Virus record (IMG/VR): IMGVR_UViG_3300037467_001397
Coordinates: 2,549 to 66,548 of that record
Strand: one strand, 5' to 3'
Length of the DNA stretch: 64,000 bases
Origin: a virus
The position numbers were made by a program, and so were the translations under genes. Each line of letters begins with the position of its first letter. Positions within the stretch are counted from its first letter, which is position 1. This document shows positions 3,667 to 33,524 of this stretch, in pieces. The notes under the pieces are model-generated. The model did not search any database. It was not told the DNA's origin and saw only the letters and a program-made list of their open reading frames with translations.

Positions 3667-3864
3667 CTAATGGATTTCCGGCTCTTTGCGCTCGTGCGCC
3701 ACGCAACCGAAGTCGTCGAAGGTCGTCAGGGCGCCGTGCCCCGGGCCGACCGGGACGCGCTCGTCCAGGCTGCCGCACCGCCCGCGGGGATGCTTGGGCT
3801 CCTTCTCGCCCTCGATCGCGCGGTCCTCCGGGCGCCAGAACTTGCAGGTCGAGCAGGTCGGCAT
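3667..3864 (-). CDS. Small Cys-rich (CxxC...C...C) protein
   Basis: MPTCSTCKFW...GRCG...FGCVAH; ATG at 3864 directly follows a copy of the GCGTGACGGAG leader. Confidence 0.6.
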   Translation of the reverse strand: MPTCSTCKFWRPEDRAIEGEKEPKHPRGRCGSLDERVPVGPGHGALTTFDDFGCVAHERKEPEIH

Positions 3865-3904
3865 CAGGGGCTCCGTCACGCGATGGGTCTGGTATTTTTT
3901 CGGG

Positions 3905-4126
3905 TCAGGCAAACAGCGAAGGCCGCCACCCCGGCGACCGGCTGTTGAACTCGCTCGCCGGCTGAACGCGCGGCAAAGGCGCCTCCACCTTGCGGATCGT
4001 GCGCATCACGTAGCTCGTCACCGCCGCCAGGTCGCCCGCGTACAGGACCGCCTTGTCCCGGCCGACGACCGTGTAGCCGCCGTCACGCGCCGCCTCGATG
4101 GTCAGGCGGTCAGGAGTGTCGGACAT
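3905..4126 (-). CDS. Hypothetical protein
   Basis: 73 aa; start preceded by the shared leader/RBS. Confidence 0.65.
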   Translation of the reverse strand: MSDTPDRLTIEAARDGGYTVVGRDKAVLYAGDLAAVTSYVMRTIRKVEAPLPRVQPASEFNSRSPGWRPSLFA

Positions 4127-4310
4127 CAGAGGGCTCCGTCACGCGCGTAGGGTGGTTTTTTGGGGCGCGGGCACCGGGTCGAACGGTCAACCAGGGCTAA
4201 GGAGGCCGATCGCTCCCCCATACAGCCGGCGGTCAGCCTCTCCAGTGAGGCCGCCCTCGCGCTTTGCGCAGACGGATTTCGGGCCTCGTCACGCGCGATG
4301 TGTGGATTTT

Positions 4311-4577
4311 TCAGACCTTCCGACGCACAATCGCAGCTATGGCCTGCTCGGCTGTCGGTGCTGGGGTGATCTTGGCGGTCTCGGCATCCAGGCTGCCGTT
4401 GCGGCGCGGATCGAGCCAATCAGCCTTTGGCGTACAGGCGAACGCTTCCAGCATACGAGCGGCCAAGTCTGGGCACATCTCCATCGCGTGTCCGTAAGAC
4501 ACCCCGAAGTACATGAGCGCCACGACGACGTCTGGAGCGTAGTGGCTCCCGATGGTCTCTTTCGAATCCTCGGCCAT
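4311..4577 (-). CDS. Hypothetical protein
   Basis: ATG at 4577 (MAEDSKETIG) follows the shared leader/RBS GGAGG. Confidence 0.55.
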   Translation of the reverse strand: MAEDSKETIGSHYAPDVVVALMYFGVSYGHAMEMCPDLAARMLEAFACTPKADWLDPRRNGSLDAETAKITPAPTAEQAIAAIVRRKV

Positions 4578-4978
4578 CAGGACCTCCGTCACGCGCGATG
4601 TGGTAATTTTTTCCTAGCCGTCACACACGAGGTGTGCTGTGCGGGGTGGGGTGCGGGCCCAGGCGCGCTCGACCCACACCATGGGGGGGGTGGTCGCCGG
4701 CCTCCCCTGCCTGCCGACGGCAGCCGGCGCCCGCTGTGCCACTAGGCTCAAGACCATGAGGCACGACCGTGCCAAAAGCCCCGATCCGACCCGTGTGGCA
4801 CGGTGCGAGGGCATGCGGCAGGCCGTGCCACTAGAGCCTGCCTATTGGCGCAGTGATTCCGACAGAGGGGCCTGCGCTGCATTGCAGCAATGTGAAGCAG
4901 AACGATGAAAAATATTGGCTTGAAAGCAGTGATCGATGCCGTAATAGAGGCACATATCATCATGCTTGTGGGAACAGA

Positions 4979-5373: not shown

Positions 5374-5985
5374 TCACAGCACAGGCTTGTCGGGGCCAGG
5401 CTCATCCGGGGCGATGACGGTCGCATCCTGCTTGATCGTCGACGCCGCGTCGGTGTGGTCGCCCGTGAGCTTGGTAGCGTCCACCGAGAACGCCTTGGGA
5501 AGGAAGCGTTCCATAAGCCATTTCCGGACTTCGACCCGTGCCTTCGAGCGCTCGACCGCCTCCCTATTGAGACGGGTCTCGGTCGCACCGCCGAACGTGC
5601 GCTTTTCCTCCCAATCGTTCGAGCTGTCGTCAATGATCCGCACGATGATGTCGGCTTGCGCGGTCGCCCAGGACGCCCTTGCGCGCGTTAGGTCCGACGA
5701 AAAAGACTCGTCGCGCTGCGCCCACTTCATCACCGTCGTGCGCTCCGGCATGTGCGGGCTGTCGCACACATCCATGAGCGTCTCGCCCGCACCGATGCGC
5801 TGTAGCAGCTCTGCGCGGACCTCTGGCGTCATCACCGACGGCCGACCGCCCGTGCTGGGCAGTGTCGCGGCGACGGCCCCCGTCGCTTCGGCATGCCGCG
5901 CCGCCTTGCTCTTGGTGGTCCGCTTCGCCTTGGGCGCGTCGCTGGCAACAGCCGGCGCCGTCGCCGGCCTCTTGGTGCCAGCCAT
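5374..5985 (-). CDS. terS: Terminase small subunit (Sf6 gp1-like)
   Basis: HTH (ELLQRIGAGETLMDVC..MPERTTVMKW), F..ARA..ADII.IID.S.ND, and AVERSKARVEVRKWLMER..PK, typical of this TerS family. Confidence 0.8.
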   Translation of the reverse strand: MAGTKRPATAPAVASDAPKAKRTTKSKAARHAEATGAVAATLPSTGGRPSVMTPEVRAELLQRIGAGETLMDVCDSPHMPERTTVMKWAQRDESFSSDLTRARASWATAQADIIVRIIDDSSNDWEEKRTFGGATETRLNREAVERSKARVEVRKWLMERFLPKAFSVDATKLTGDHTDAASTIKQDATVIAPDEPGPDKPVL

Positions 5986-6043: not shown

Positions 6044-6583
6044 TTCTGAGAATTCTAAGAGATTTCTAAGAAAATTCTGAACGTTCGTTCAGAAACAGGC
6101 CATTTACGGCAGCTACGGCAGTTCGTACGGCAGTTCGTTTTAGCCTGGTGCCGTACTGCCGACCCCTTGATCTTAAAGGGAAACGTGCCGCGAAACTCGG
6201 GACCAAAACCGGTACGGCACTTAGAACGCCTATTACCGCTCTACACGGGGAATAAATGCGGGCCCGCGCAACCGCGGCGTGCAGGCGCGCCCCTTTCCTA
6301 TTTTTCTCTCACCCGTGGAGTAAGAGAAAAACTGCCGTACTGCCGGAACCCCCGAGGGCGGGGCGGTGAACTCCTTGCGGATCAACGACTTGGCGGAACG
6401 GCACTAGCTCCGGACCAACTGCCGTACGAACTGCCGTAATGCAAAACGGTGCCGTAATCGCTTTTCCGTTGCGGTTCGCCGCACCACGCTCTTGACGGTG
6501 GAAAACCGCAACACCATTCTCTGTTGCGCAGCCTAGCTCGGCCCAACTGCCGCCGCTCGGCTTCCTAAGAGATTTCTAAGAAA
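6044..6583. repeat. Repeat-rich intergenic region (candidate packaging site or origin)
   Basis: Perfect 22-bp inverted repeat 6114-6135/6417-6438; nine copies of (C/G)TGCCGTA or its complement; 19-bp direct repeat CTAAGAGATTTCTAAGAAA at 6055-6073 and 6565-6583. Confidence 0.85.
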
Positions 6584-6596
6584 CCGGAGCGCGACC

Positions 6597-7136
6597 ATGG
6601 TAGCGACACGCCCGCCGACGATGCAGGAGCTTTTGGACTCGAAGGGCCACGACACGGTGTCCCGCGTCATCGGGTTCCGGCGGGACAGTCCGACGATGTC
6701 GGCAACGGCCATTGCCATGTGGCTCAACATTTCGCCGGCTCGCGTCTCAAAGATCCTTCGCGATGCTGGGATGCCGAAACAGTCCATGGCCGAGAAGCGC
6801 CGTCTACGGCGCGATGCAAAGGCCGGCGTTCGGGTCACGCGCTCGACCGCGCTAGAGTCCGGACATGAGTTCGCCTGCATCGTGCGAGAGTTGGGCCTCT
6901 CGATTGAGGAGGCTGCACGCTTGTTCGGGCGCGATGCCGCGACCATCCGCAGCTACTGCACCGGCAAGCGGGTTCCGCCGTACATGGCGCGGTTCGCCTA
7001 TCTCGCACTGGCCCTTGGCACCGACAGGGCGCGGGAACTCATGCGCCAGGGGCGCACGATGGCGCAGGGCGCGGTCGCCAAGAAAAAAGCAAAAACGCTC
7101 TCGACCCCTGTTGACACCAGAGAATCATCTCGCTAA
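6597..7136 (+). CDS. Tandem double-HTH DNA-binding protein (paralogue of 11176..11616)
   Basis: HTH1 SATAIAMWLNISPARVSKIL; XRE-like HTH2 LGLSIEEAARLFGRDAATIRSYCTG. Confidence 0.75.
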   Translation: MVATRPPTMQELLDSKGHDTVSRVIGFRRDSPTMSATAIAMWLNISPARVSKILRDAGMPKQSMAEKRRLRRDAKAGVRVTRSTALESGHEFACIVRELGLSIEEAARLFGRDAATIRSYCTGKRVPPYMARFAYLALALGTDRARELMRQGRTMAQGAVAKKKAKTLSTPVDTRESSR

Positions 7137-7139
7137 GTT
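7111..7139 (+). promoter_or_regulatory. Sigma70-type promoter P1
   Basis: TTGACA-N17-TAAGTT with upstream A-tracts. Confidence 0.85.
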
Positions 7140-7182
7140 AGCTTCATCGCCACCGGGCAGCAGCCCAACGGGAGACACGGAA

Positions 7183-7338
7183 ATGACCAAGATGATCACC
7201 AAGCTCTTCGCTGACCGGGTCGAGGTCCAGAAGCGACGCTTTATGAACGGCTACACCGTGATGCGGATCACCACTACCTGGAGCGGCAAGGTCCGCTCAG
7301 TCGAGGTCCTCGAGAAGAAGATCCTCTGGACACTCTGA
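7183..7338 (+). CDS. Small basic hypothetical protein
   Basis: 51 aa after P1, leader and GGAG RBS. Confidence 0.7.
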   Translation: MTKMITKLFADRVEVQKRRFMNGYTVMRITTTWSGKVRSVEVLEKKILWTL

Positions 7339-7384
7339 GGGGCTCCGGCCCCTCCCCTTCCCTCATCTCGCACGGAGCAGACCA

Positions 7385-7501
7385 ATGACCTTCTACCGCT
7401 TCATTCTCCCCGCCGGCGGTGTCCTGGATCTCGACTTCCGCACCGGTGAGCAGGCCGCGGCGCATGCCGACTACCTGCGGGCTCGTTTCTTCAAGCTGTG
7501 A
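7385..7501 (+). CDS. Small hypothetical protein (38 aa)
   Basis: Manual translation MTFYRFILPAGG...FFKL; GGAG RBS. Confidence 0.5.
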   Translation: MTFYRFILPAGGVLDLDFRTGEQAAAHADYLRARFFKL

Positions 7502-7526
7502 CCCGAAAAAACTTCACTCGGCCTAG

Positions 7527-7555
7527 TTGACACCACCAAACCAATCGGCTAACTT
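7527..7555 (+). promoter_or_regulatory. Sigma70-type promoter P2
   Basis: TTGACA-N17-TAACTT with upstream A-tract. Confidence 0.85.
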
Positions 7556-7596
7556 ACACCCATCGCAACCGGGCAGCAGCCCAAGGAGATACGGAA

Positions 7597-7899
7597 ATGG
7601 CCAACGTCGACGACCCGCACATGATCTCGGATGAGGCTCTGGACGCGCTCTATAGTGACGAGGACACGCTGGCCCGCGCCTTCGCCTGCGAGCATACCGG
7701 CGAGATGACGCGCGAGACCTGGGAGCGCATCCAGGCGGACAAACCCGCTCAGGCGCGGCCCTTCCTGCTCGCCATGAAGCGCGGGCGCTACCGTGAGACC
7801 GGCGCGTACACGCAGGCCGTCCTGGGGGCTCGCATGGCCAACAAGCGGCGGCCAAAGCCGCGCCTGATGGCTGGCCCATGGTGCGGGTGGCGCTCCTAA
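7597..7899 (+). CDS. Hypothetical protein
   Basis: 100 aa; AAGGAG RBS after the leader. Confidence 0.75.
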   Translation: MANVDDPHMISDEALDALYSDEDTLARAFACEHTGEMTRETWERIQADKPAQARPFLLAMKRGRYRETGAYTQAVLGARMANKRRPKPRLMAGPWCGWRS

Positions 7900-8006
7900 C
7901 CAAGACCGAAACCTAGGGAGGGCCAACCCTCCCGACGGTCGCACCGTGACGCGGTGCCTGATGAGGTCACGCAACCGGGCAGCAGCCCACAATCGGAGAC
8001 ACGACA

Positions 8007-8183
8007 ATGCGCGCTCGCGACTACTGCGCCCATGTGGCGGCCTACTATGACCAGGACGCCCAACGCCTCGCATTCAGCTCAGATCAAGCGGCTTACGATC
8101 GCGCTTGGGCGAAGGCTTGGGCTTGGCATCGCCGGGCGGAGAAGGGGATCTTGATCGGAGCATGGCTCGGCCGGGCGGCATAG
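8007..8183 (+). CDS. Small hypothetical protein (58 aa)
   Basis: Manual translation MRARDYCAHV...WLGRAA; leader copy plus GGAG RBS. Confidence 0.6.
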   Translation: MRARDYCAHVAAYYDQDAQRLAFSSDQAAYDRAWAKAWAWHRRAEKGILIGAWLGRAA

Positions 8184-8214
8184 CCTGTCATCGAAAAAAC
8201 TTCGCTTGGCCTAG

Positions 8215-8243
8215 TTGACACCAAGCGATCACTTCGCTAAGTT
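8215..8243 (+). promoter_or_regulatory. Sigma70-type promoter P3
   Basis: TTGACA-N17-TAAGTT with upstream A-tract. Confidence 0.85.
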
Positions 8244-8284
8244 AGATCTATCGCAACCGGGCAGACGCCCTAGGAGATACGAAG

Positions 8285-8524
8285 ATGGCCAAGCACCCCA
8301 CCATCAAGCTCACCGTCCTGGCCGGCGAGGGCTACATTGTCGAGAACGGCGGCGATGTCGGCAACAAGGTCTTTCACTTCCTGATGGGGATGAGCCGCAA
8401 GGGTTGGCTCGGCCGCGTCGCCTCAATGAAGGGTCACGGCCTGTACCTGGCCGGGATCGATCGGCTGGCCGGCTTCAAGGCGTACTGCGAGGCGCAAGGC
8501 TTCGTCGTGGTCACCTCTGCCTAG
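8285..8524 (+). CDS. Hypothetical protein
   Basis: 79 aa; AGGAG RBS after the leader. Confidence 0.75.
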   Translation: MAKHPTIKLTVLAGEGYIVENGGDVGNKVFHFLMGMSRKGWLGRVASMKGHGLYLAGIDRLAGFKAYCEAQGFVVVTSA

Positions 8525-8618
8525 ACCCATCGCCTCGAGGCCGTGCGCACAACGCGGCCTCGCACGATGTGCCTAGCTCACATCACACCGCAACCGGGCA
8601 GACGCCCCAGGAACGATC

Positions 8619-8723
8619 ATGACAGCCATTATAGCAATCGCGCTCGCATGCGCGGCGACCGCCACCGGTGCCCTCTGGGCGGCGGGTCATACCTACCTCA
8701 ATCTGAAGCAGGGGGACCGCTAA
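8619..8723 (+). CDS. Small membrane peptide (34 aa)
   Basis: MTAIIAIALACAATATGALWAAG hydrophobic stretch; leader copy plus AGGA. Confidence 0.55.
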   Translation: MTAIIAIALACAATATGALWAAGHTYLNLKQGDR

Positions 8724-8724
8724 C

Positions 8725-9057
8725 ATGCGCGCCATCCTGCTAGCCGGCATCGCCGGCCTGATGACAGCTGGCGCGGTCGCGGTCGCACAGCCGCAGGTCG
8801 GCCCGTACTGGGAACCCACCGAAACCTACATGCAACGCCAGTTGCACGGCTACCCTCGCGCCTACTTCATGAACCAATGGGGCGGCCTGAACGATTGCCG
8901 ACGCGCCGCGACCGACACAGAGGTGGAATGGTGCGCCGGCGAGTTGCCGGCCTCATCCTCCGCCAACCCCGCGCGGTTCGATTGCCGTAAGGCTGAGGTG
9001 GATGCGGAATACCGCTACTGCCGCAAGCCGTTCCCGCATCGCGTTCCGGCCCGGTGA
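8725..9057 (+). CDS. Secreted Cys-containing hypothetical protein
   Basis: Signal-peptide-like N-terminus ending AVA; four Cys. Confidence 0.7.
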   Translation: MRAILLAGIAGLMTAGAVAVAQPQVGPYWEPTETYMQRQLHGYPRAYFMNQWGGLNDCRRAATDTEVEWCAGELPASSSANPARFDCRKAEVDAEYRYCRKPFPHRVPAR

Positions 9058-9061
9058 CGCC

Positions 9062-9178
9062 ATGCACGCGCAAACGACGATTGAGATCCTGTCCTATAGC
9101 TCTGGCGTGCTCACGACGTGCGCCATGCTGTTCCTGGCATCGGCCGCGCTCGCATGGCGCATGCGGTACGATCCCTAG
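9062..9178 (+). CDS. Small membrane peptide (38 aa)
   Basis: Manual translation with one hydrophobic helix (VLTTCAMLFLASAALAW). Confidence 0.4.
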   Translation: MHAQTTIEILSYSSGVLTTCAMLFLASAALAWRMRYDP

Positions 9179-9224
9179 GCCGGAAAAAAACGACGGGCCC
9201 CGCAACTTTTTTGTCGGGGCCTAG

Positions 9225-9253
9225 TTGACACTATGAAACCAATGAGCTAAGTT
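9225..9253 (+). promoter_or_regulatory. Sigma70-type promoter P4 (ardA)
   Basis: TTGACA-N17-TAAGTT. Confidence 0.85.
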
Positions 9254-9298
9254 ACATCCATCGCAACCGGGCAGCCGCCCAACGAAGGAACCGCCCCG

Positions 9299-9871
9299 AT
9301 GACCGCTCCCCGCTTCTACGCCGCCTGCCTCGCCAGCTACAACAACGGTGTCCTGCACGGCACCTGGATCGATGCCAGCACGGACACGGATGAGATGGCG
9401 GCCGCTATCGCCGAGATGCTCCGCGCCTCGAAGTTCCCGAACGTGACCGTCGAGCATCCCGAGACCGGCGAGATGGTGCCCAGCGCCGAGGAATACGCGA
9501 TCCACGATTATGACGGCCTGCCGTCATCGTTCGGCGAGTACCCCGGCCTCGACAAGATCGCCGAGTATGTCGAGCTGCTCGAGGCGGCCGAGGATCGCGG
9601 CATGCCGGCCGAGATGGTCGCGAAGGTGGTCGACAACTTCGGCGGCGACATCGGCGAGGCGAAGGAAGCGATTGAGGACAAGTTCTGCGGCGTTCACGAC
9701 AGCCTTGAAGCCTACGCCGAGGACTACATTGAGTCGACTGGCATGCTCGACGGCGTCAACGACACGATCGCCCGGTACTTCGATTTCCAGGCGTTCGCCC
9801 GGGACCTCGAGCTAGGCGGCGATATCTGGACCATCCGGCACGAGGGCGATTTGTACGTCTTCAGCGCCTGA
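9299..9871 (+). CDS. ardA: ArdA-family antirestriction protein (DNA mimic)
   Basis: YAACLASYNNGVLHGTWID, EEYAIHDYD and RYFDFQAFARDL..GD motifs; very acidic. Confidence 0.92.
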   Translation: MTAPRFYAACLASYNNGVLHGTWIDASTDTDEMAAAIAEMLRASKFPNVTVEHPETGEMVPSAEEYAIHDYDGLPSSFGEYPGLDKIAEYVELLEAAEDRGMPAEMVAKVVDNFGGDIGEAKEAIEDKFCGVHDSLEAYAEDYIESTGMLDGVNDTIARYFDFQAFARDLELGGDIWTIRHEGDLYVFSA

Positions 9872-9875
9872 CACG

Positions 9876-9906
9876 AAAAAAACGAGCGGGGCCTCAAAAC
9901 CCCGCT
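9876..9906 (-). terminator. Intrinsic terminator facing the minus strand, overlapping P5
   Basis: Stem AGCGGGG/CCCCGCT (9885-9891/9900-9906) followed on the minus strand by a T-run; a similar hairpin lies at about 9184-9221. Confidence 0.5.
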
Positions 9907-9934
9907 TGACACCACAAAATCAATCGGCTAATAT
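9906..9934 (+). promoter_or_regulatory. Sigma70-type promoter P5
   Basis: TTGACA-N17-TAATAT. Confidence 0.85.
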
Positions 9935-9980
9935 CCAAACATCGCAACAGGGCAGCAGCCCAACGGAAGGAACCCGATCG

Positions 9981-10397
9981 ATGCCCGCTCAGACCGCCAC
10001 CGCCGTCAACCCCGCCACCCTCGCCAGCATGCTGGGCGGCTACATCCGCTGCGCCCTGTGGTCCTCGACGGACAACAGCGATCCGGAGACCGGCGGCGAC
10101 CCGATGGATCAGAACTACAGCCGCGAGGACCTGGCCCCGCGCACCCTGGATCGGCTAGAGCGCGACTGCGCCGCTTTCCTTGCCAAATTCCGGGACATGC
10201 TGGCCGAGCAGCCCGGCGACGCTGAGCAAGCCGGACATGATCTGTGGCTCACTAGGAACGGCCACGGCACCGGCTTTTGGGATCGCGGTGACGATGTGTG
10301 GACGGCGGAAGCCCGCAAGGCATTCAACGCCTACGCTAACCGCCTCGCCCCGCGTGATCTGTACGTTGGTGATGACGGCATGATCTACGTAATGTGA
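9981..10397 (+). CDS. Conserved-looking phage hypothetical protein
   Basis: ATG at 9981 after the leader and AAGGAA; YIRCALWSS..DC.AF..QAGHDLWLTRNGHGTGFWDR motif. Confidence 0.75.
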   Translation: MPAQTATAVNPATLASMLGGYIRCALWSSTDNSDPETGGDPMDQNYSREDLAPRTLDRLERDCAAFLAKFRDMLAEQPGDAEQAGHDLWLTRNGHGTGFWDRGDDVWTAEARKAFNAYANRLAPRDLYVGDDGMIYVM

Positions 10398-10496
10398 TCG
10401 GCCGCCTAACCCGCCACAACGCACCGTTCTCCCCATCGCCCCAGATGGGGAGCGCCGTGCGCTGAAGGTCGGGGCACGAAACCGGAGGATAGGACG

Positions 10497-10775
10497 ATGT
10501 TCTACATCTACAACGAGACTTTCGGCTCTGTCGCTCGCCGCGAAGAACTGACGGGCAAGATCGCGAACCGCTGTTGGATCGATGTCGGTCCAACCTGGAA
10601 CAACCAAGCGCCGCCCCGCGCCTACGCCTCGGACGACATCAAGGATTTCTACGCGCAGGTGAGCAAGTACGGGTGCCAGTGGGCCGGGAAGATTGCTCAC
10701 GCCCTGGAAGAGAAGGGGCTGATCGGGACGTTCACGACCGACGACGAGGGCGATCTGGTCGAGATCAACGCCTAA
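10497..10775 (+). CDS. Hypothetical protein
   Basis: 92 aa; GGAGG/AGGA RBS. Confidence 0.7.
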   Translation: MFYIYNETFGSVARREELTGKIANRCWIDVGPTWNNQAPPRAYASDDIKDFYAQVSKYGCQWAGKIAHALEEKGLIGTFTTDDEGDLVEINA

Positions 10776-10800
10776 CCATCAGCAAACAGGAGACACGACA

Positions 10801-11163
10801 ATGCCGCTCAATCTCTCAGATCTCGAACAGCATGGCCTAGGCTACGTTGCCGAATTGGTCCGCGGCGGCCGCTACGTTCCCGACAGCGTTCTAGTTCCGG
10901 CCGGCGAGGGCCGCTACCAAGAGGCGCTTATGGCATACCACGACTGGTGCTTGACGGACGCATGCCGCGAGTTCGCCAACGATGTGCTCGACAACGTTGC
11001 AGAGTATGGCGGCTGGAAAGACCCGACCGATCGGGCCGAGGTTCGTGAGTACCTCGATTCCGCCTGGGCGGATCATGAGAACTGGCGCGAGATGAGCGAG
11101 GACGAGCGCCGCTCAGCAGCTCGCATCACTGCGCGCATGGTCCGCGACCGGCTAGCTAACTAA
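10801..11163 (+). CDS. Hypothetical acidic protein
   Basis: 120 aa; RBS context GGAGACACGACAATG is identical to that at 7995-8009. Confidence 0.75.
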   Translation: MPLNLSDLEQHGLGYVAELVRGGRYVPDSVLVPAGEGRYQEALMAYHDWCLTDACREFANDVLDNVAEYGGWKDPTDRAEVREYLDSAWADHENWREMSEDERRSAARITARMVRDRLAN

Positions 11164-11175
11164 GGAACCCCACCC

Positions 11176-11616
11176 ATGTCCACAGCAGACCAGATCATCG
11201 CCCTGGCCAAAGTCGCCAAGGGCAAGAACACATCCGCCATCGCGGACGATCTTGGCATATCGCGCGAGCGCGTGCGCCAGGTCCTGAAGGCCAACGGCCT
11301 GAAGTCGGATTTCCGCGGCGAGATCCCGGCGCGGCGTCGGCCGGGCCCGGTGAAGCGGTTCGAGGAACGCGCGCCCTTCGGACAGGTGCTCGACCTGCTC
11401 GGCCTCACCAATGAGCAGGCGGCCGATCTGGTCGGCGCGCATCCGGTCACCGTGGCCAAGTATGCCAACGGCACGTCAACCGCACCGGAGGCCATGCAGC
11501 TCTATCTGCTGGCCTGCCTCGGGCTGGGCGTCGACACCGTGCAAGCGGCTGTGGATGCCGGCCAGCGCAAGCTCAAGTCAGCAGTTGACACGGCCAAACA
11601 AGGCGCTAAGATCTAA
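11176..11616 (+). CDS. Tandem double-HTH DNA-binding protein (paralogue of 6597..7136)
   Basis: HTH1 NTSAIADDLGISRERVRQVL; HTH2 LGLTNEQAADLVGAHPVTVAKYANG. Confidence 0.8.
   Translation: MSTADQIIALAKVAKGKNTSAIADDLGISRERVRQVLKANGLKSDFRGEIPARRRPGPVKRFEERAPFGQVLDLLGLTNEQAADLVGAHPVTVAKYANGTSTAPEAMQLYLLACLGLGVDTVQAAVDAGQRKLKSAVDTAKQGAKI
11585..11612 (+). promoter_or_regulatory. Sigma70-type promoter P6 (recombinase)
   Basis: TTGACA-N16-TAAGAT inside the 3' end of the upstream gene. Confidence 0.75.
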
Positions 11617-11654
11617 CCATCGCAACCGGGCAGACGCCCAGAGGATACCAGACC

Positions 11655-12203
11655 ATGCTGATCGGCTACGCCCGCACCTCCACCGCCGAGCAAGTCGCCG
11701 GCTTCGAGGCACAGATCAGAGACCTGAAAGCGCTCGGCTGCGAGAAGATCTTTCAGGAACAGGTGTCATCGGTCGCGTCGCGCGCACAGCTCGAGGCGGC
11801 GCTGGACTTCGCCCGGGAAGGTGATGCGCTTGTGGTGACCAAGCTCGACCGCCTTGCGCGATCGATGCGCGATCTGCTCGACATCGTGGCCCGGCTCGAG
11901 CGCAAGGGCGTTGCCCTGCGGATCCTGGCCATGAACCTCGACACGGCCACACCTACGGGCAAGCTGATGCTGAACGTGCTCGGCAGCGTCGCCCAGTTCG
12001 AGCGGGAAATGATGCTCGAGCGCCAGCGCGAAGGCGTCGACAAGGCCAAAGCCGCGGGCAAGTACAAGGGCCGTGCGCCGACCGCGCTCGCCAAGTCCGC
12101 CGCGGTCCTGGCGCTCAAGGCCGAAGGTCTAGGCGCGGCAGAGATCGCGCGGCGCGCCGGCATTTCCCGGCGGAGCGCATACCGGATTTTGGAGGCGCAG
12201 TGA
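11655..12203 (+). CDS. Small serine recombinase (resolvase/invertase family)
   Basis: GYARTST catalytic Ser, VVTKLDRLARS, EREMMLERQREG, C-terminal HTH; 182 aa, no large-serine-integrase domain. Confidence 0.95.
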   Translation: MLIGYARTSTAEQVAGFEAQIRDLKALGCEKIFQEQVSSVASRAQLEAALDFAREGDALVVTKLDRLARSMRDLLDIVARLERKGVALRILAMNLDTATPTGKLMLNVLGSVAQFEREMMLERQREGVDKAKAAGKYKGRAPTALAKSAAVLALKAEGLGAAEIARRAGISRRSAYRILEAQ

Positions 12204-12424
12204 TGGCGAAGCGAAAGCCCGAACCCGCCGCGCCACCCGCCCACTATCCGAGCGATGCCGCGGACAGGATACAGCTCCGCCTTCCCGGCGAGCTGCGCGA
12301 TCTGATCCACAAAGTCGCGAAACAGAACTACCGATCGGCGAACAATGAAATCGTCTATCGCCTGATCAAGAGCCTCGAGGCAGACGGCTTTCGTCTGCCA
12401 GAGGCTGAAGAGGATGCCGCGTGA
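12200..12424 (+). CDS. Arc-like ribbon-helix-helix repressor
   Basis: DRIQLRLPGELRDLIHKVAKQNYRSANNEIVYRL. Confidence 0.85.
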   Translation: MMAKRKPEPAAPPAHYPSDAADRIQLRLPGELRDLIHKVAKQNYRSANNEIVYRLIKSLEADGFRLPEAEEDAA

Positions 12425-16339: not shown

Positions 16340-16498
16340 TCACGGTTTAACCGCCTTTAGTTCGGCGAGCTGTTTGCGCACCCACGCCATATCGCTACGG
16401 GCGAGGCGGATGGTGTCCTCCAGTCGCTTGAGCCGGAGGAGGAGCTGCAAGCGGCGCCAGTTGCGCTCCTGCCTGGCCGCAAGCTCCTCGGGGCTCAC
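16340..16498 (-). CDS. Small coiled-coil protein
   Basis: Manual translation MSPEELAARQERNWRRLQLLLRL...; GTG overlaps the stop of the NusG-like gene. Confidence 0.5.
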   Translation of the reverse strand: MSPEELAARQERNWRRLQLLLRLKRLEDTIRLARSDMAWVRKQLAELKAVKP

Positions 16499-17217
16499 GC
16501 CGTCGCCTCGGGCTGCGGCATCGGCCGAAGCATGCTCACCGGCACGCGCATGATGCCGGCCGACTTGAAGTGCCGCAGGACCACGCCGGCCTCGTCGTTC
16601 AGGATCTTGACGACGTCGACCTCGGCGCCCGGCAGGAACGTGCCCTCGCCGAACTGCGCGACGTCGCCGAGCTTGATCCCCGTGGCTGTGACCACTACGG
16701 GCTCGGGCTCGACCGCGGGCTTCGGCAGGTCTTCTTTGCCGCCCTTGAACCCGCCGAAACGCTCGCGGTCGGCCAGCTTGCGCAGGTCATCGGCAGGGAT
16801 AGCCAGCGGCTTGCCGTAGTTCGACAGCACGCCCGAGATGTCATCGTTGAACCGGATCGCGACCCAGTTCGTGCGCTCATCGGTGCCGATGAACAGGATC
16901 GAGCCGAACAGCGGGCGCTGCGCCTCCTCCTTGACGTTCGAGCGGGCGCGGAATGCCCAGCGCGTCTCGACCGGGCAGTAGGTGGTGATCCTGGCGCGCT
17001 TCATGGCGGCCAGCACCCGGCGATGCGTGCCGGGCTTCACCACCATGGCGTACCACGTCAGGTCGTTGGTGATGGCGGGCGGCGAGATCCGTTCATCCTC
17101 GTCGAGCGGCACGTAGCGCACCTGCGCGGCGACATAGGGCGCCTCGATGCGGGAGTTGTGCTGCGGGGTCGCCTTGGCCTCAAGCTTCTTGCGGATCTGG
17201 TTCAGCTTGTTCGCCAC
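16495..17217 (-). CDS. NusG/RfaH-family antitermination factor (NGN plus KOW-like)
   Basis: WYAMVVKPG...TYCP...RPLFGSILFI NGN motifs; C-terminal IKLGDVAQFGEGTF KOW-like segment. Confidence 0.8.
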   Translation of the reverse strand: MANKLNQIRKKLEAKATPQHNSRIEAPYVAAQVRYVPLDEDERISPPAITNDLTWYAMVVKPGTHRRVLAAMKRARITTYCPVETRWAFRARSNVKEEAQRPLFGSILFIGTDERTNWVAIRFNDDISGVLSNYGKPLAIPADDLRKLADRERFGGFKGGKEDLPKPAVEPEPVVVTATGIKLGDVAQFGEGTFLPGAEVDVVKILNDEAGVVLRHFKSAGIMRVPVSMLRPMPQPEATA

Positions 17218-17218
17218 G

Positions 17219-17452
17219 TCACGCCACCACGCGAAAGAGGGCACGGTGCGCGGCCTTCAGGCGGGCGCGCATTTCGTTGACGGTCTCAAGATTGGCCGGA
17301 TGCGGGAACTCGGCGCAGATCTGCTCGGCGTAACCGAGGGCGGCGCGACGGACGAGGAAGGAGCGGACCGAGATGGACCGCATGGCCTCGTCTAGGAAGC
17401 TCTGCTCGACTGCCTCGAGGGTGACCGCATGCAACACGAAACACCCCCGCAT
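17219..17452 (-). CDS. Hypothetical protein
   Basis: 77 aa ORF in the operon run. Confidence 0.45.
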   Translation of the reverse strand: MRGCFVLHAVTLEAVEQSFLDEAMRSISVRSFLVRRAALGYAEQICAEFPHPANLETVNEMRARLKAAHRALFRVVA

Positions 17453-26143: not shown

Positions 26144-26530
26144 ATGCCAAAGAAAGAGGCTCTGGTGATCGACACGGATTTCCCGCCCTCGTCCAGGGAG
26201 GCAACCGCGGCTCGGCTTGGCATCCTGCGCGAAGCCCTCGGGTACACGGTGCAGCAGGATTGGTGCGCGGTCGTCGGGATCAAGCAGCCGGCCTGGTCGC
26301 AGTACGAGCGGGACGTCCACAAGATCACGTCCGACGCCGCCATCGCGATCTGTGACCGATTCCCCGGCCTCACGACCGATTGGATCTATCGCGGCCTCGA
26401 CGGGACCATTCTTCCCTCCTACCGGGAGCGGATCCAGGAGATCCGTCATGCCCGCCGGCGGAAGCGCGACATGATGGGCGGCGGCCCGGTTGCGCCGAAG
26501 CGGTCCAACTCTCTGGCGAGCGCGCGCTAG
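26144..26530 (+). CDS. CI-like XRE repressor (no peptidase domain)
   Basis: RLGILREALGYTVQQDWCAVVGIKQPAWSQYE..TDWIYRG. Confidence 0.8.
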   Translation: MPKKEALVIDTDFPPSSREATAARLGILREALGYTVQQDWCAVVGIKQPAWSQYERDVHKITSDAAIAICDRFPGLTTDWIYRGLDGTILPSYRERIQEIRHARRRKRDMMGGGPVAPKRSNSLASAR

Positions 26531-32541: not shown

Positions 32542-32850
32542 CTATGGTTTTTCAGCGTTGGCGATCACCCGGGCGATTGAGCCGTATGCGCGCTTCTTCA
32601 GGACGTGATTCAGTCCTTCCACGAACAGGTCGTGCTCCTTACACCGCTCATGGTAGGCGATGTCGCGCAGCACCTCCTTCACCGCAGGGTGGATGTAGAA
32701 CGGTGTCGGCTTGGGCTTCGCGGTCGTCTTGGGCGGCCGTCCGACTTTGCGGACCGGCAGATCTGTCGGTTCCTCCGCCGGCGCGGCAGGTTTCAGATCC
32801 TCGACGCTCATGCTCTCCGGGTCAAAGATCGAGGGGGCGCGACGGCTCAT
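32542..32850 (-). CDS. Ribbon-helix-helix partition partner (ParG/CopG-like)
   Basis: Flexible N-terminus, then PTPFYIHPAVKEVLRDIAY...HDLFVEGLNHVL; ATGA overlap with parA. Confidence 0.7.
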   Translation of the reverse strand: MSRRAPSIFDPESMSVEDLKPAAPAEEPTDLPVRKVGRPPKTTAKPKPTPFYIHPAVKEVLRDIAYHERCKEHDLFVEGLNHVLKKRAYGSIARVIANAEKP

Positions 32851-33524
32851 GGCTTGCTCTCCGATTGCACGTTGACCCACTGCCAAAGCCTGCGCAACTC
32901 GGCGGCGGCCTTGCCGTCCGGGGCGTACTCGGTCACCCCCTGCCCTGCCGCAAAGGCATCCTGGTAGTCGTTGCGCAGCAGGATCAGCGGCTCGGCCATG
33001 AAGCCGATCGAGGCGAGGCCGATCGCGGTGTCGTTCGCGCGGCTGTTGCGCGGGATCGTCGAGCACTGGTTGAGCACGAACGCGAACGGCTTGCCGCTGT
33101 GCATGATGGCTTGGACGGTCGCGCGCACGGCCAGGAGATCCAGGCGCGTCGGCCGGATCGGAACCAGGCAATAGGTCGAGGCATCCATCGCGGCGCGCGT
33201 CGTCGGGTTGTCGGCGCCGGCCGTGTCGAGGATCGCGAGCGTCACGCCCTTCCCTTCCAAGCCGTCGAGCATCTTCCCCATCTGCCCGATCCGGTCGGCC
33301 GGGAAGCGCTCCACCACGGGGAGGTGGGGCTCGGGCACGGCAGTCGCGTCGGCCTTCCGGCGCATCCGGCCCCATTCGACGAGCGACCCCTGCGGGTCGA
33401 GATCGAAGGCCGCGACGGTCTCTCCGGCCTGCTGGGCCGCGATGGCGAGCGAGGTGGCCAGGGTTGTTTTCCCTGCCCCGCCCTTCTGAGTAACGAGTGT
33501 GATCGTGCGCATGGGCAATGCCAT
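32847..33524 (-). CDS. parA: ParA-family Walker ATPase (short type Ib)
   Basis: QKGGAGKTT, DLDPQGS, ILDTAG; no N-terminal HTH. Confidence 0.92.
   Translation of the reverse strand: MALPMRTITLVTQKGGAGKTTLATSLAIAAQQAGETVAAFDLDPQGSLVEWGRMRRKADATAVPEPHLPVVERFPADRIGQMGKMLDGLEGKGVTLAILDTAGADNPTTRAAMDASTYCLVPIRPTRLDLLAVRATVQAIMHSGKPFAFVLNQCSTIPRNSRANDTAIGLASIGFMAEPLILLRNDYQDAFAAGQGVTEYAPDGKAAAELRRLWQWVNVQSESKP

Follow-up and report, generated by a model that had tools for sequence, protein, structure and literature searches.

PeSLs (promoter-early stem-loops), mobile regulatory elements of T4-like phages (PMC2839356, PMC4122927), are repeated cassettes of a hyperplastic early region, each with an AT-rich stretch, sigma-70-like -35 and -10 elements, a Shine-Dalgarno sequence (SD) and a start codon. 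The Aca1/Aca2 anti-CRISPR operons (PMC13551039, PMC6765145) combine strong early promoters for counter-defence genes with a helix-turn-helix (HTH) regulator at the operon end, and they have inverted repeats at the promoter as well as RNA hairpin motifs in the 5' untranslated region (5'UTR); binding of HTH regulators to hairpins in the 5'UTRs of anti-defence operons is documented (PMC13551039). The stoperators of cluster A mycobacteriophages (PMC9283540, PMC6550527) are asymmetric, conserved sites co-oriented with transcription, which are located at promoters and in promoter-less intergenic gaps. Here, a 64,000-nucleotide (nt) stretch of a soil phage (IMG/VR virus record IMGVR_UViG_3300037467_001397, positions 2,549 to 66,548; hereafter the window) was analysed for a repeated 22-nt motif with the strict core CGCAAC-N-GGGC-A-NNN-GCCC. 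The motif is best explained as the transcribed leader within an early-gene cassette that is repeated and exchangeable and is composed of an A-tract, a sigma-70 promoter, the leader, an SD and a small gene. Besides ArdA, these cassettes would drive further small early genes of what is probably a phage-plasmid.

The leader copies and their cassettes

Eight plus-strand matches to the motif (0-3 mismatches) were located between 7145 and 11639, against a shuffle expectation of 0.03, and no further good copies were found in the whole 71-kb record. The GGGC and GCCC arms were identical in all eight copies, and the loops were AGCA in four, AGAC in three and AGCC in one. An earlier reading of the letters alone (the preliminary description) had given the same number of copies, the same invariant stem and exactly these loop counts; its consensus held for the arms and failed for the 5' part, which varies in five copies (CGCCAC at 7145, TCACGC at 7967, TATCGC at 8249, CACCGC at 8586 and CAACA at 9940).

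Copy 1 (7145-7166; loop AGCA; an A-to-C change in the 5' part) precedes a 51-amino-acid gene with its ATG at 7183, and copy 2 (7561-7582; loop AGCA), a perfect match, is followed by an ATG at 7597. The ATGs behind copies 3 (7967-7988), 4 (8249-8270; loop AGAC) and 5 (8586-8607) are at 8007, 8285 and 8619, respectively. Copy 6 (9259-9280; loop AGCC) precedes ardA (9299-9871, plus strand; Pfam ArdA, 3e-39), copy 7 (9940-9961; loop AGCA, with an A before the stem) heads an operon of three small genes and the HTH gene HTHb, and copy 8 (11618-11639; loop AGAC) precedes a small serine recombinase gene (11655-12203, plus strand) at the right end of the array. Besides ArdA and the recombinase, the cargo includes small genes without assigned function and a phrog_1915 protein, and two paralogous HTH proteins are encoded at the opposite ends of the array. 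From the end of the hairpin to the start codon the distance is 10-19 nt in the window copies, and to the SD 1-6 nt. A ninth, weak match with 3 mismatches and the loop CGCC lies antisense within an HTH_31 gene (26476-26497, minus strand); it was not counted as a member and is probably a coding-sequence coincidence. In the relative G001, a one-mismatch match to a looser pattern has a broken stem (GGTC).

In six of the eight copies, the motif starts exactly 5 nt downstream of TTGACAC-N15-GCTAAnnT. This sequence is a sigma-70 promoter close to the consensus, of the GCTAnnnT type, and an A6-7 tract is located about 20 nt 5' of its -35. The 7th base 3' of the -10 hexamer is the A of CATCGC; from this fixed 5-nt distance, the +1 is predicted at the A of the motif, where the preliminary description had also put it. 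Promoter 1 (7111-7139; TTGACA, 17-nt spacer, TAAGTT) lies within the 3' end of the HTHa gene and promoter 6 (11585-11612) inside the 3' end of HTHb, promoters 2 (7527-7555) and 3 (8215-8243) have an A6 tract upstream (about 20 nt away for promoter 2), promoter 4 (9225-9253) has an A-tract and a GGCCCCG/CGGGGCC hairpin (9190-9224) ahead of it, and promoter 5 (9906-9934) a hairpin at 9885-9906, all on the plus strand. All six promoters of this type in the window carry the leader, and the other consensus promoter (16132-16105, minus strand) has no leader motif. GGCCTAG upstream of the -35 was found in only three of the six cassettes; outside the promoter, no block other than the leader is strongly conserved throughout the six.

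Two further features of these promoters were observed. The hairpins at 9885-9906 and 9190-9224 read as minus-strand intrinsic terminators, because the upstream A-tracts become T-tracts on that strand, and they could shield the array from antisense transcription. Both HTH paralogue genes overlap the promoter of the next cassette, and the -35 (GTTGACAC; 7111-7118 and 11584-11591) encodes Val-Asp-Thr in each.

Within 45 nt upstream of the copies at 7967 and 8586 no TTGAC was found, and both are followed by an SD and an ATG, in agreement with the preliminary description. GC hairpins are located upstream of both (two of them before 7967). The stretch before 8586 resembles a decayed -10 region, and this copy is probably a decayed promoter duplicate in which the leader was retained.

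Only two related phages were found in IMG/VR, L012/L409 with five copies (loops AGCC, AGCA and AGAT) and L136/L410 with seven (loop AAYC; G replaces C before the stem in four). Of the 20 copies that the three phages have in total, all are on the coding strand, bounded on the 3' side by the SD and on the 5' side by the predicted +1 or the preceding gene. Over the 15 promoter-bearing copies of the three phages, the information content of the leader was higher than that of the -35 and the -10, while the 16-nt spacer and the 5-nt discriminator had diverged, free of insertions and deletions in 14 of the 15. The constancy of these lengths places the predicted transcript start exactly at the motif. 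Since conversion tracts would have homogenised the spacer and the discriminator as well, the island of conservation points to selection on the leader.

The copy of the 8586 type, which precedes a small membrane-protein gene, is present in all three phages with diverged flanks. In L410, a copy at 5427 begins 2 nt past a stop codon and extends to the next SD without a promoter, filling the intercistronic gap. The retention of promoter-less copies across phages indicates that the leader is separable from the promoter, and upholds the conservation independent of the promoter for which the preliminary description had argued. A hairpin GAGGCCG...CGGCCTC, with differing loops, stands before the promoter-less copy in each phage (window 8544-8569, L409 about 6530-6555 and L410 about 3925-3950); the 5' arm in L410 is GGGGCCG, which turns an A-U pair into G-U and pairs in RNA, not in DNA.

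Three of the leader/start-codon boundaries (7600, 9308 and 11650) are the places where the blocks of blastn homology to L409 and L410 stop, either at a start codon or a few nt from it, and gene content between the cassettes is not the same in the three phages. From the -10 to +25, two of the L136 cassettes have identical sequences, a sign of recent conversion or duplication.

Action of the leader as RNA or as DNA

For the way in which the leader acts, an RNA-level role, possibly with binding by the co-encoded double-HTH protein HTHb as in Aca1/Aca2, is proposed tentatively, and it has a slight lead over a DNA operator. The mRNA would have AUCGCAACC at its 5' end and then a hairpin of four G-C pairs that stops 1-6 nt short of the SD, and each cassette gene, including the internal cistrons behind the promoter-less copies, would receive a ribosome-binding site with a 5' edge that is folded alike and does not depend on context. 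HTHb, as the best candidate reader, could turn all cassettes off jointly once the first minutes of infection have passed, in the way that Aca1 and Aca2 act on hairpins in the 5'UTRs of anti-CRISPR operons. The +1, the action at the RNA level and the binding of HTHb are all inferred.

The hairpin was present in the minimum free energy fold of 16 of the 20 leaders, with about -7.4 kcal/mol in isolation. The near-invariance of the sequence, beyond what the fold needs, suggests that a sequence-specific factor also reads the leader. Sequestration of the SD by an extended helix was considered and rejected, because such a helix is not conserved among the copies, and so was an antisense RNA, as there is no reverse-strand copy of the motif besides the weak coding-region match.

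HTHb (11176-11616, plus strand; 146 amino acids), the last gene of the promoter-5 operon, has two HTH domains (Pfam HTH_23 and HTH_3) joined by a disordered linker and falls into PHROG repressor families. It is conserved in all three motif-bearing phages, with 90% identity in L012 and 48-51% in L136; it is most diverged in L136, where position 2 of the loop is A rather than G and position 10 is G in four copies. The fold search with HTHb returned generic XRE-type regulators only, all with E > 0.1, Aca2 (E 0.6) being among them. For its paralogue HTHa (6597-7136, plus strand; 179 amino acids), at the left edge of the array, no orthologue was found in the two relatives, in which its only match is the HTHb orthologue (26-28% identity).

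Looser relatives of the arrangement, with a GC inverted repeat and an AATC-type loop between a TTGAC promoter and an SD, were reached via ArdA in L137/L138 and L155; ArdA was the only early-region protein of the window with a match in these loci. L137/L138 is an ArdA-bearing contig pair with its own promoter array (L137: 2034, 2903 and 4186; L138: 2743, 3633 and 4632), in which a GCGC-AATCNN-GCGC hairpin, beginning 7-8 nt past the -10, reaches almost to a CAAGGGG SD; a GGCCTAGGCC palindrome was also observed in the -35/-10 spacer there. In L155, five TTGACG promoters (4650, 5251, 5961, 7026 and 7483, one of them preceding ardA) are each followed by a GC hairpin and then an SD; four hold GGGCAATCCCGCCC and one GCGCAATCCCGCGC. 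One L155 copy has GCGC arms, against GGGC/GCCC in the other four (a G-C to C-G swap). The AATC part of the loop is kept, as in L136, with a loop length of 4 versus 6 nt. Complementarity that is maintained while both the sequence and the loop length change is easier to account for by a hairpin than by a dimeric DNA site.

Several observations weigh against the RNA-level role. All 80 stem positions compared (four pairs over 20 copies) were identical, that is, covariation was zero, and DNA sites just as typically show invariant arms around a variable centre. Folding alone leaves the invariant, single-stranded CGCAAC unexplained. With its stem about 10 nt from the predicted +1, the hairpin is too distant for a 5'-terminal stabiliser of the classical kind. 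The G-C to C-G swap across lineages amounts to at most two events, and the homology of the cassettes concerned is itself inferred. Three of the L155 hairpins are 10-12 bp long and followed by a T-rich TTTGCTTTGG, which makes them terminator-like rather than leaders. Finally, the sequence examined around the arrays of L137, L138 and L155 yielded no homologue of HTHb, so that a conserved hairpin there cannot be an HTHb site. As to the first point, any single change in a four-pair stem would nearly abolish the hairpin, and invariance is therefore also expected under selection on structure only; zero covariation speaks here neither for nor against structure.

The constant stem and variable loop, which the preliminary description had reported, are not evidence for RNA, because a spaced DNA palindrome looks alike and 20 copies show no covariation. 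Its interpretation is partly supported, by the separability of leader and promoter. The 5'-end stabiliser among its options fits poorly. Stabilisers of the ompA type need a stem within a few nt of the 5' end, and the present locus differs from them by its stem 10 nt from the predicted +1; in L137/L138, the hairpin starts 7-8 nt after the -10.

The nearest competitor, possible and somewhat less probable than the RNA-level role, is a DNA operator or roadblock. A phage repressor (candidate HTHb, perhaps as a monomer with its two HTHs on CGCAAC and GGGCAG) would occupy the double-stranded 22-mer from +1 to +22, block RNA polymerase at the six promoters and stop read-through at the promoter-less copies, in the manner of stoperators, P1 C1 operators and lacO1. 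The site is asymmetric, co-oriented with transcription and placed at promoters and in short intergenic gaps, with arms that are invariant around a variable centre of 2-3 nt. In a plasmid prophage (a ParA-like gene is located at 32847-33524), six near-consensus A-tract promoters would need silencing, and the only strongly conserved non-promoter block in all six cassettes is the leader. HTHb has two linked HTH domains and about 50% identity in L136, where the motif differs, and a monomeric two-domain repressor on an asymmetric site has been documented (PMC9283540). With Aca1/Aca2 on 5'UTR hairpins (PMC13551039) and this repressor, there are precedents for either way of reading the leader and for a combination of the two. 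However, the sites are limited to 4.5 kb and the other consensus promoter (16132-16105) is without the motif. All copies hug the SD, which a roadblock does not need, and steric repression does not need a fixed, indel-free distance of 5 nt from the -10. In the related arrays, a loop of 4 versus 6 nt would change the half-site spacing for a dimer, and an HTHb homologue was not found near them.

That the cassettes are recombination scaffolds only, PeSL-like homology patches homogenised by gene conversion in which the 22-mer has no regulatory role, is considered unlikely. The three ends of the homology blocks, the differing gene content between cassettes and the identical pair in L136 are consistent with it, as are the PeSLs themselves, conserved promoter/stem-loop/SD cassettes at insertion/deletion junctions with degraded half copies (PMC4122927, PMC2839356). 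It is opposed by the divergence of the spacer and the discriminator and by the leader retained in promoter-less copies of three phages.

Recruitment of specialised NusG paralogues, as with RfaH/ops and LoaP, depends on short leader elements that are strand-specific, and the motif is strand-specific, located in leaders and provided with a small hairpin. A loading site for a NusG paralogue, acting as an ops-like non-template DNA signal or as a LoaP-like RNA hairpin and rendering transcription of the array resistant to termination, is nevertheless very improbable. The NusG-domain protein of the phage is kept in both relatives (86% and 58% identity). Yet short cassettes need no processive antitermination, the NusG gene stands beside its own strong promoter and a leader of about 480 nt as the more obvious target, elements at +4 to +22 are very near the start for the hand-over of an elongation factor, and no likeness to the ops sequence was seen.

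Least credible of all is a recombination site for the small serine recombinase within an integron-like cassette array: a resolvase-type gene follows the last copy in three of three phages, the copies are direct repeats flanking gene cassettes and homology with the relatives breaks at three leader boundaries, but there is no 24-30 bp dyad typical of res/hix-type sites, the centre varies between copies and would block strand exchange, and no recombinase match was found near the L137, L138 and L155 arrays.

Distribution of the motif and other elements of the phage

No match at gathering thresholds was obtained with Rfam over the 64 kb, and only chance-level hits (E > 2) fell within 7000-11800, in line with the earlier statement that the element belongs to no named family. 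The core-motif scan of IMG/VR returned only L012 plus chance single hits; the search with ArdA added L136, and the alignment of HTHb returned the same two relatives. By scanning for GGCCTAG-TTGAC-N16-GCTAA, the same family was recovered together with four unrelated contigs without the leader. In representative bacterial genomes, 78 single motif hits were counted, a number expected by chance, of which none lay behind TTGAC and several preceded ordinary host genes; among 401 alphaproteobacterial genomes, there was no match to the promoter plus ATCGCAAC. Only short, unrelated hits were given by blastn against phage GenBank, the literature search for the 9-mer yielded primers only, and no HTHa or HTHb homologue was found near other ATCGCAAC promoters. 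For 7000-12300, a single sequencing run of DNA, probably that of the source sample, and no RNA run was found.

With the pattern GCTAAnnT-N6-ATCGCAAC, 121 matches were obtained in the viral scan, 17 of them behind TTGAC at the right spacing, including 11 outside the family; the control with the reversed 8-mer gave 0 of 120. The metagenome scan for the full promoter plus ATCGCAAC yielded 21 hits, mostly with very short leaders and some before ordinary-looking genes, the base before the A being C or T in 18. In unrelated contigs (viral and metagenome loci L023, L060, L046, L061, L108, L117 and L411-L431), YATCGCAAC was observed exactly 5 nt (6 counting Y) downstream of the GCTAAnnT of TTGAC promoters, usually with a very short leader, and in several cases a TTAGC-N3-5-GCTAA palindrome spans the -10 of the promoter. 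The 5' nine bases may represent a favoured initiation context rather than part of a phage-specific site, which, given a single control and no count of promoters, is only suggestive.

The whole record has 71,155 bp with terminal repeats and is myovirus-like, encoding a tail sheath, baseplate J, a gpD-like hub, a D5-type primase-helicase, a ParA-like ATPase and a NusG-domain protein. Among the proteins scanned, none was recognised as an integrase. This, together with the ParA/MinD-type ATPase (32847-33524) and the small serine recombinase, fits a plasmid-prophage lifestyle, and the phage is probably a phage-plasmid or plasmid prophage.

A second leader family was observed on the minus strand at 3863-4614. 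Its four copies have an A5-6 tract, about 6 nt, (C/T)ATCGCGCGTGACGGAGG, about 5 nt and an ATG, with no -35; the A-tract 6 nt before ATCGC matches the -10 to +1 geometry of the main family, and the copies are kept in both relatives. These copies could be promoters of a class that has the -10 alone, or else leaders between cistrons. The NusG-domain protein is encoded at 16495-17244 (minus strand; Pfam 1.5e-10), and beside it, at 16132-15620, a TTGACA-N17-TATACT promoter and a gene-free stretch of about 480 nt were found. The gene and the adjoining promoter and leader form a probable specialised antitermination module.

Significance and comparison with known systems

Early regions rich in small unassigned genes are where new anti-defence proteins are being found, and the leader offers an inexpensive sequence marker by which counter-defence cassettes of the early regions could be located in related phages. 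The promoter and 5'UTR together make a compact expression module for GC-rich bacteria, and the locus is a small testable case of HTH regulators reading the same short sequence as DNA and as RNA. It is conceivable, if rather unlikely, that the array is a plug-and-play counter-defence platform, in which a gene recombined behind a leader would gain a strong early promoter and a common regulatory address read by HTHb both as DNA (at the +1) and as a 5'UTR hairpin. If so, anti-defence genes would be shuffled and switched on and off as one unit, and an Aca-like dual DNA/RNA control, tied to cassette exchange, would extend to ArdA-type cassettes in phage-plasmids of GC-rich soil bacteria. Were the leader a recombination patch only, it would be a second, independent case of PeSL-like cassette shuffling outside the T4 group.

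Lambda-type nut sites resemble the leader in that, close to where an early transcript begins, a conserved linear stretch precedes a short GC hairpin. They differ in that CGCAAC is not like boxA, no N-like arginine-rich protein was recognised and the eight sites are distributed by gene or gene pair, not by operon; between the cassettes, the plus strand showed no terminator-like site. With the stoperators (PMC9283540, PMC6550527), the motif shares its asymmetry, conservation, orientation and placement, and a candidate binder with two DNA-binding domains, as in the monomeric two-domain repressor of those phages. However, stoperators occur genome-wide in 20-30 copies, in contrast to eight copies in 4.5 kb that all stand directly before an SD, and the hosts and proteins are unrelated.

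The layout of the PeSLs (PMC2839356, PMC4122927) is matched by six full cassettes. Like PeSLs, the cassettes stand at insertion, deletion or replacement junctions between close relatives (here the block ends at 7600, 9308 and 11650), and degraded half copies occur. In PeSLs, the stem-loop lies upstream of the promoter, which here is the case only for promoters 4 and 5 (9190-9224 and 9885-9906), a hairpin being absent before the other four. A conserved 22-nt block downstream of the +1 has not been described for PeSLs, the phage lineage and the GC-rich host are different, and the promoter-less copies keep the leader rather than the promoter. A further characteristic of PeSLs is that the DNA between two cassettes can be excised as mini-circles.

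The Aca1/Aca2 operons (PMC13551039, PMC6765145) differ from the present locus, where no inverted repeat covers the -35 and -10 and the only repeat is GGGC-N4-GCCC at +11 to +22, where the cargo consists of ArdA and unassigned genes without known Acr proteins, where HTHb has two HTH domains and only a weak likeness in fold to Aca2, and where the hairpin is without covariation. In common with these operons, strong early promoters serve counter-defence genes, a small conserved hairpin, here a predicted one, stands in the 5'UTR beside the ribosome-binding site, and the HTH gene closes its operon, HTHb being last behind promoter 5 with ardA in the neighbouring cassette; the reach of the Aca regulators extends to neighbouring operons, as that of HTHb would.

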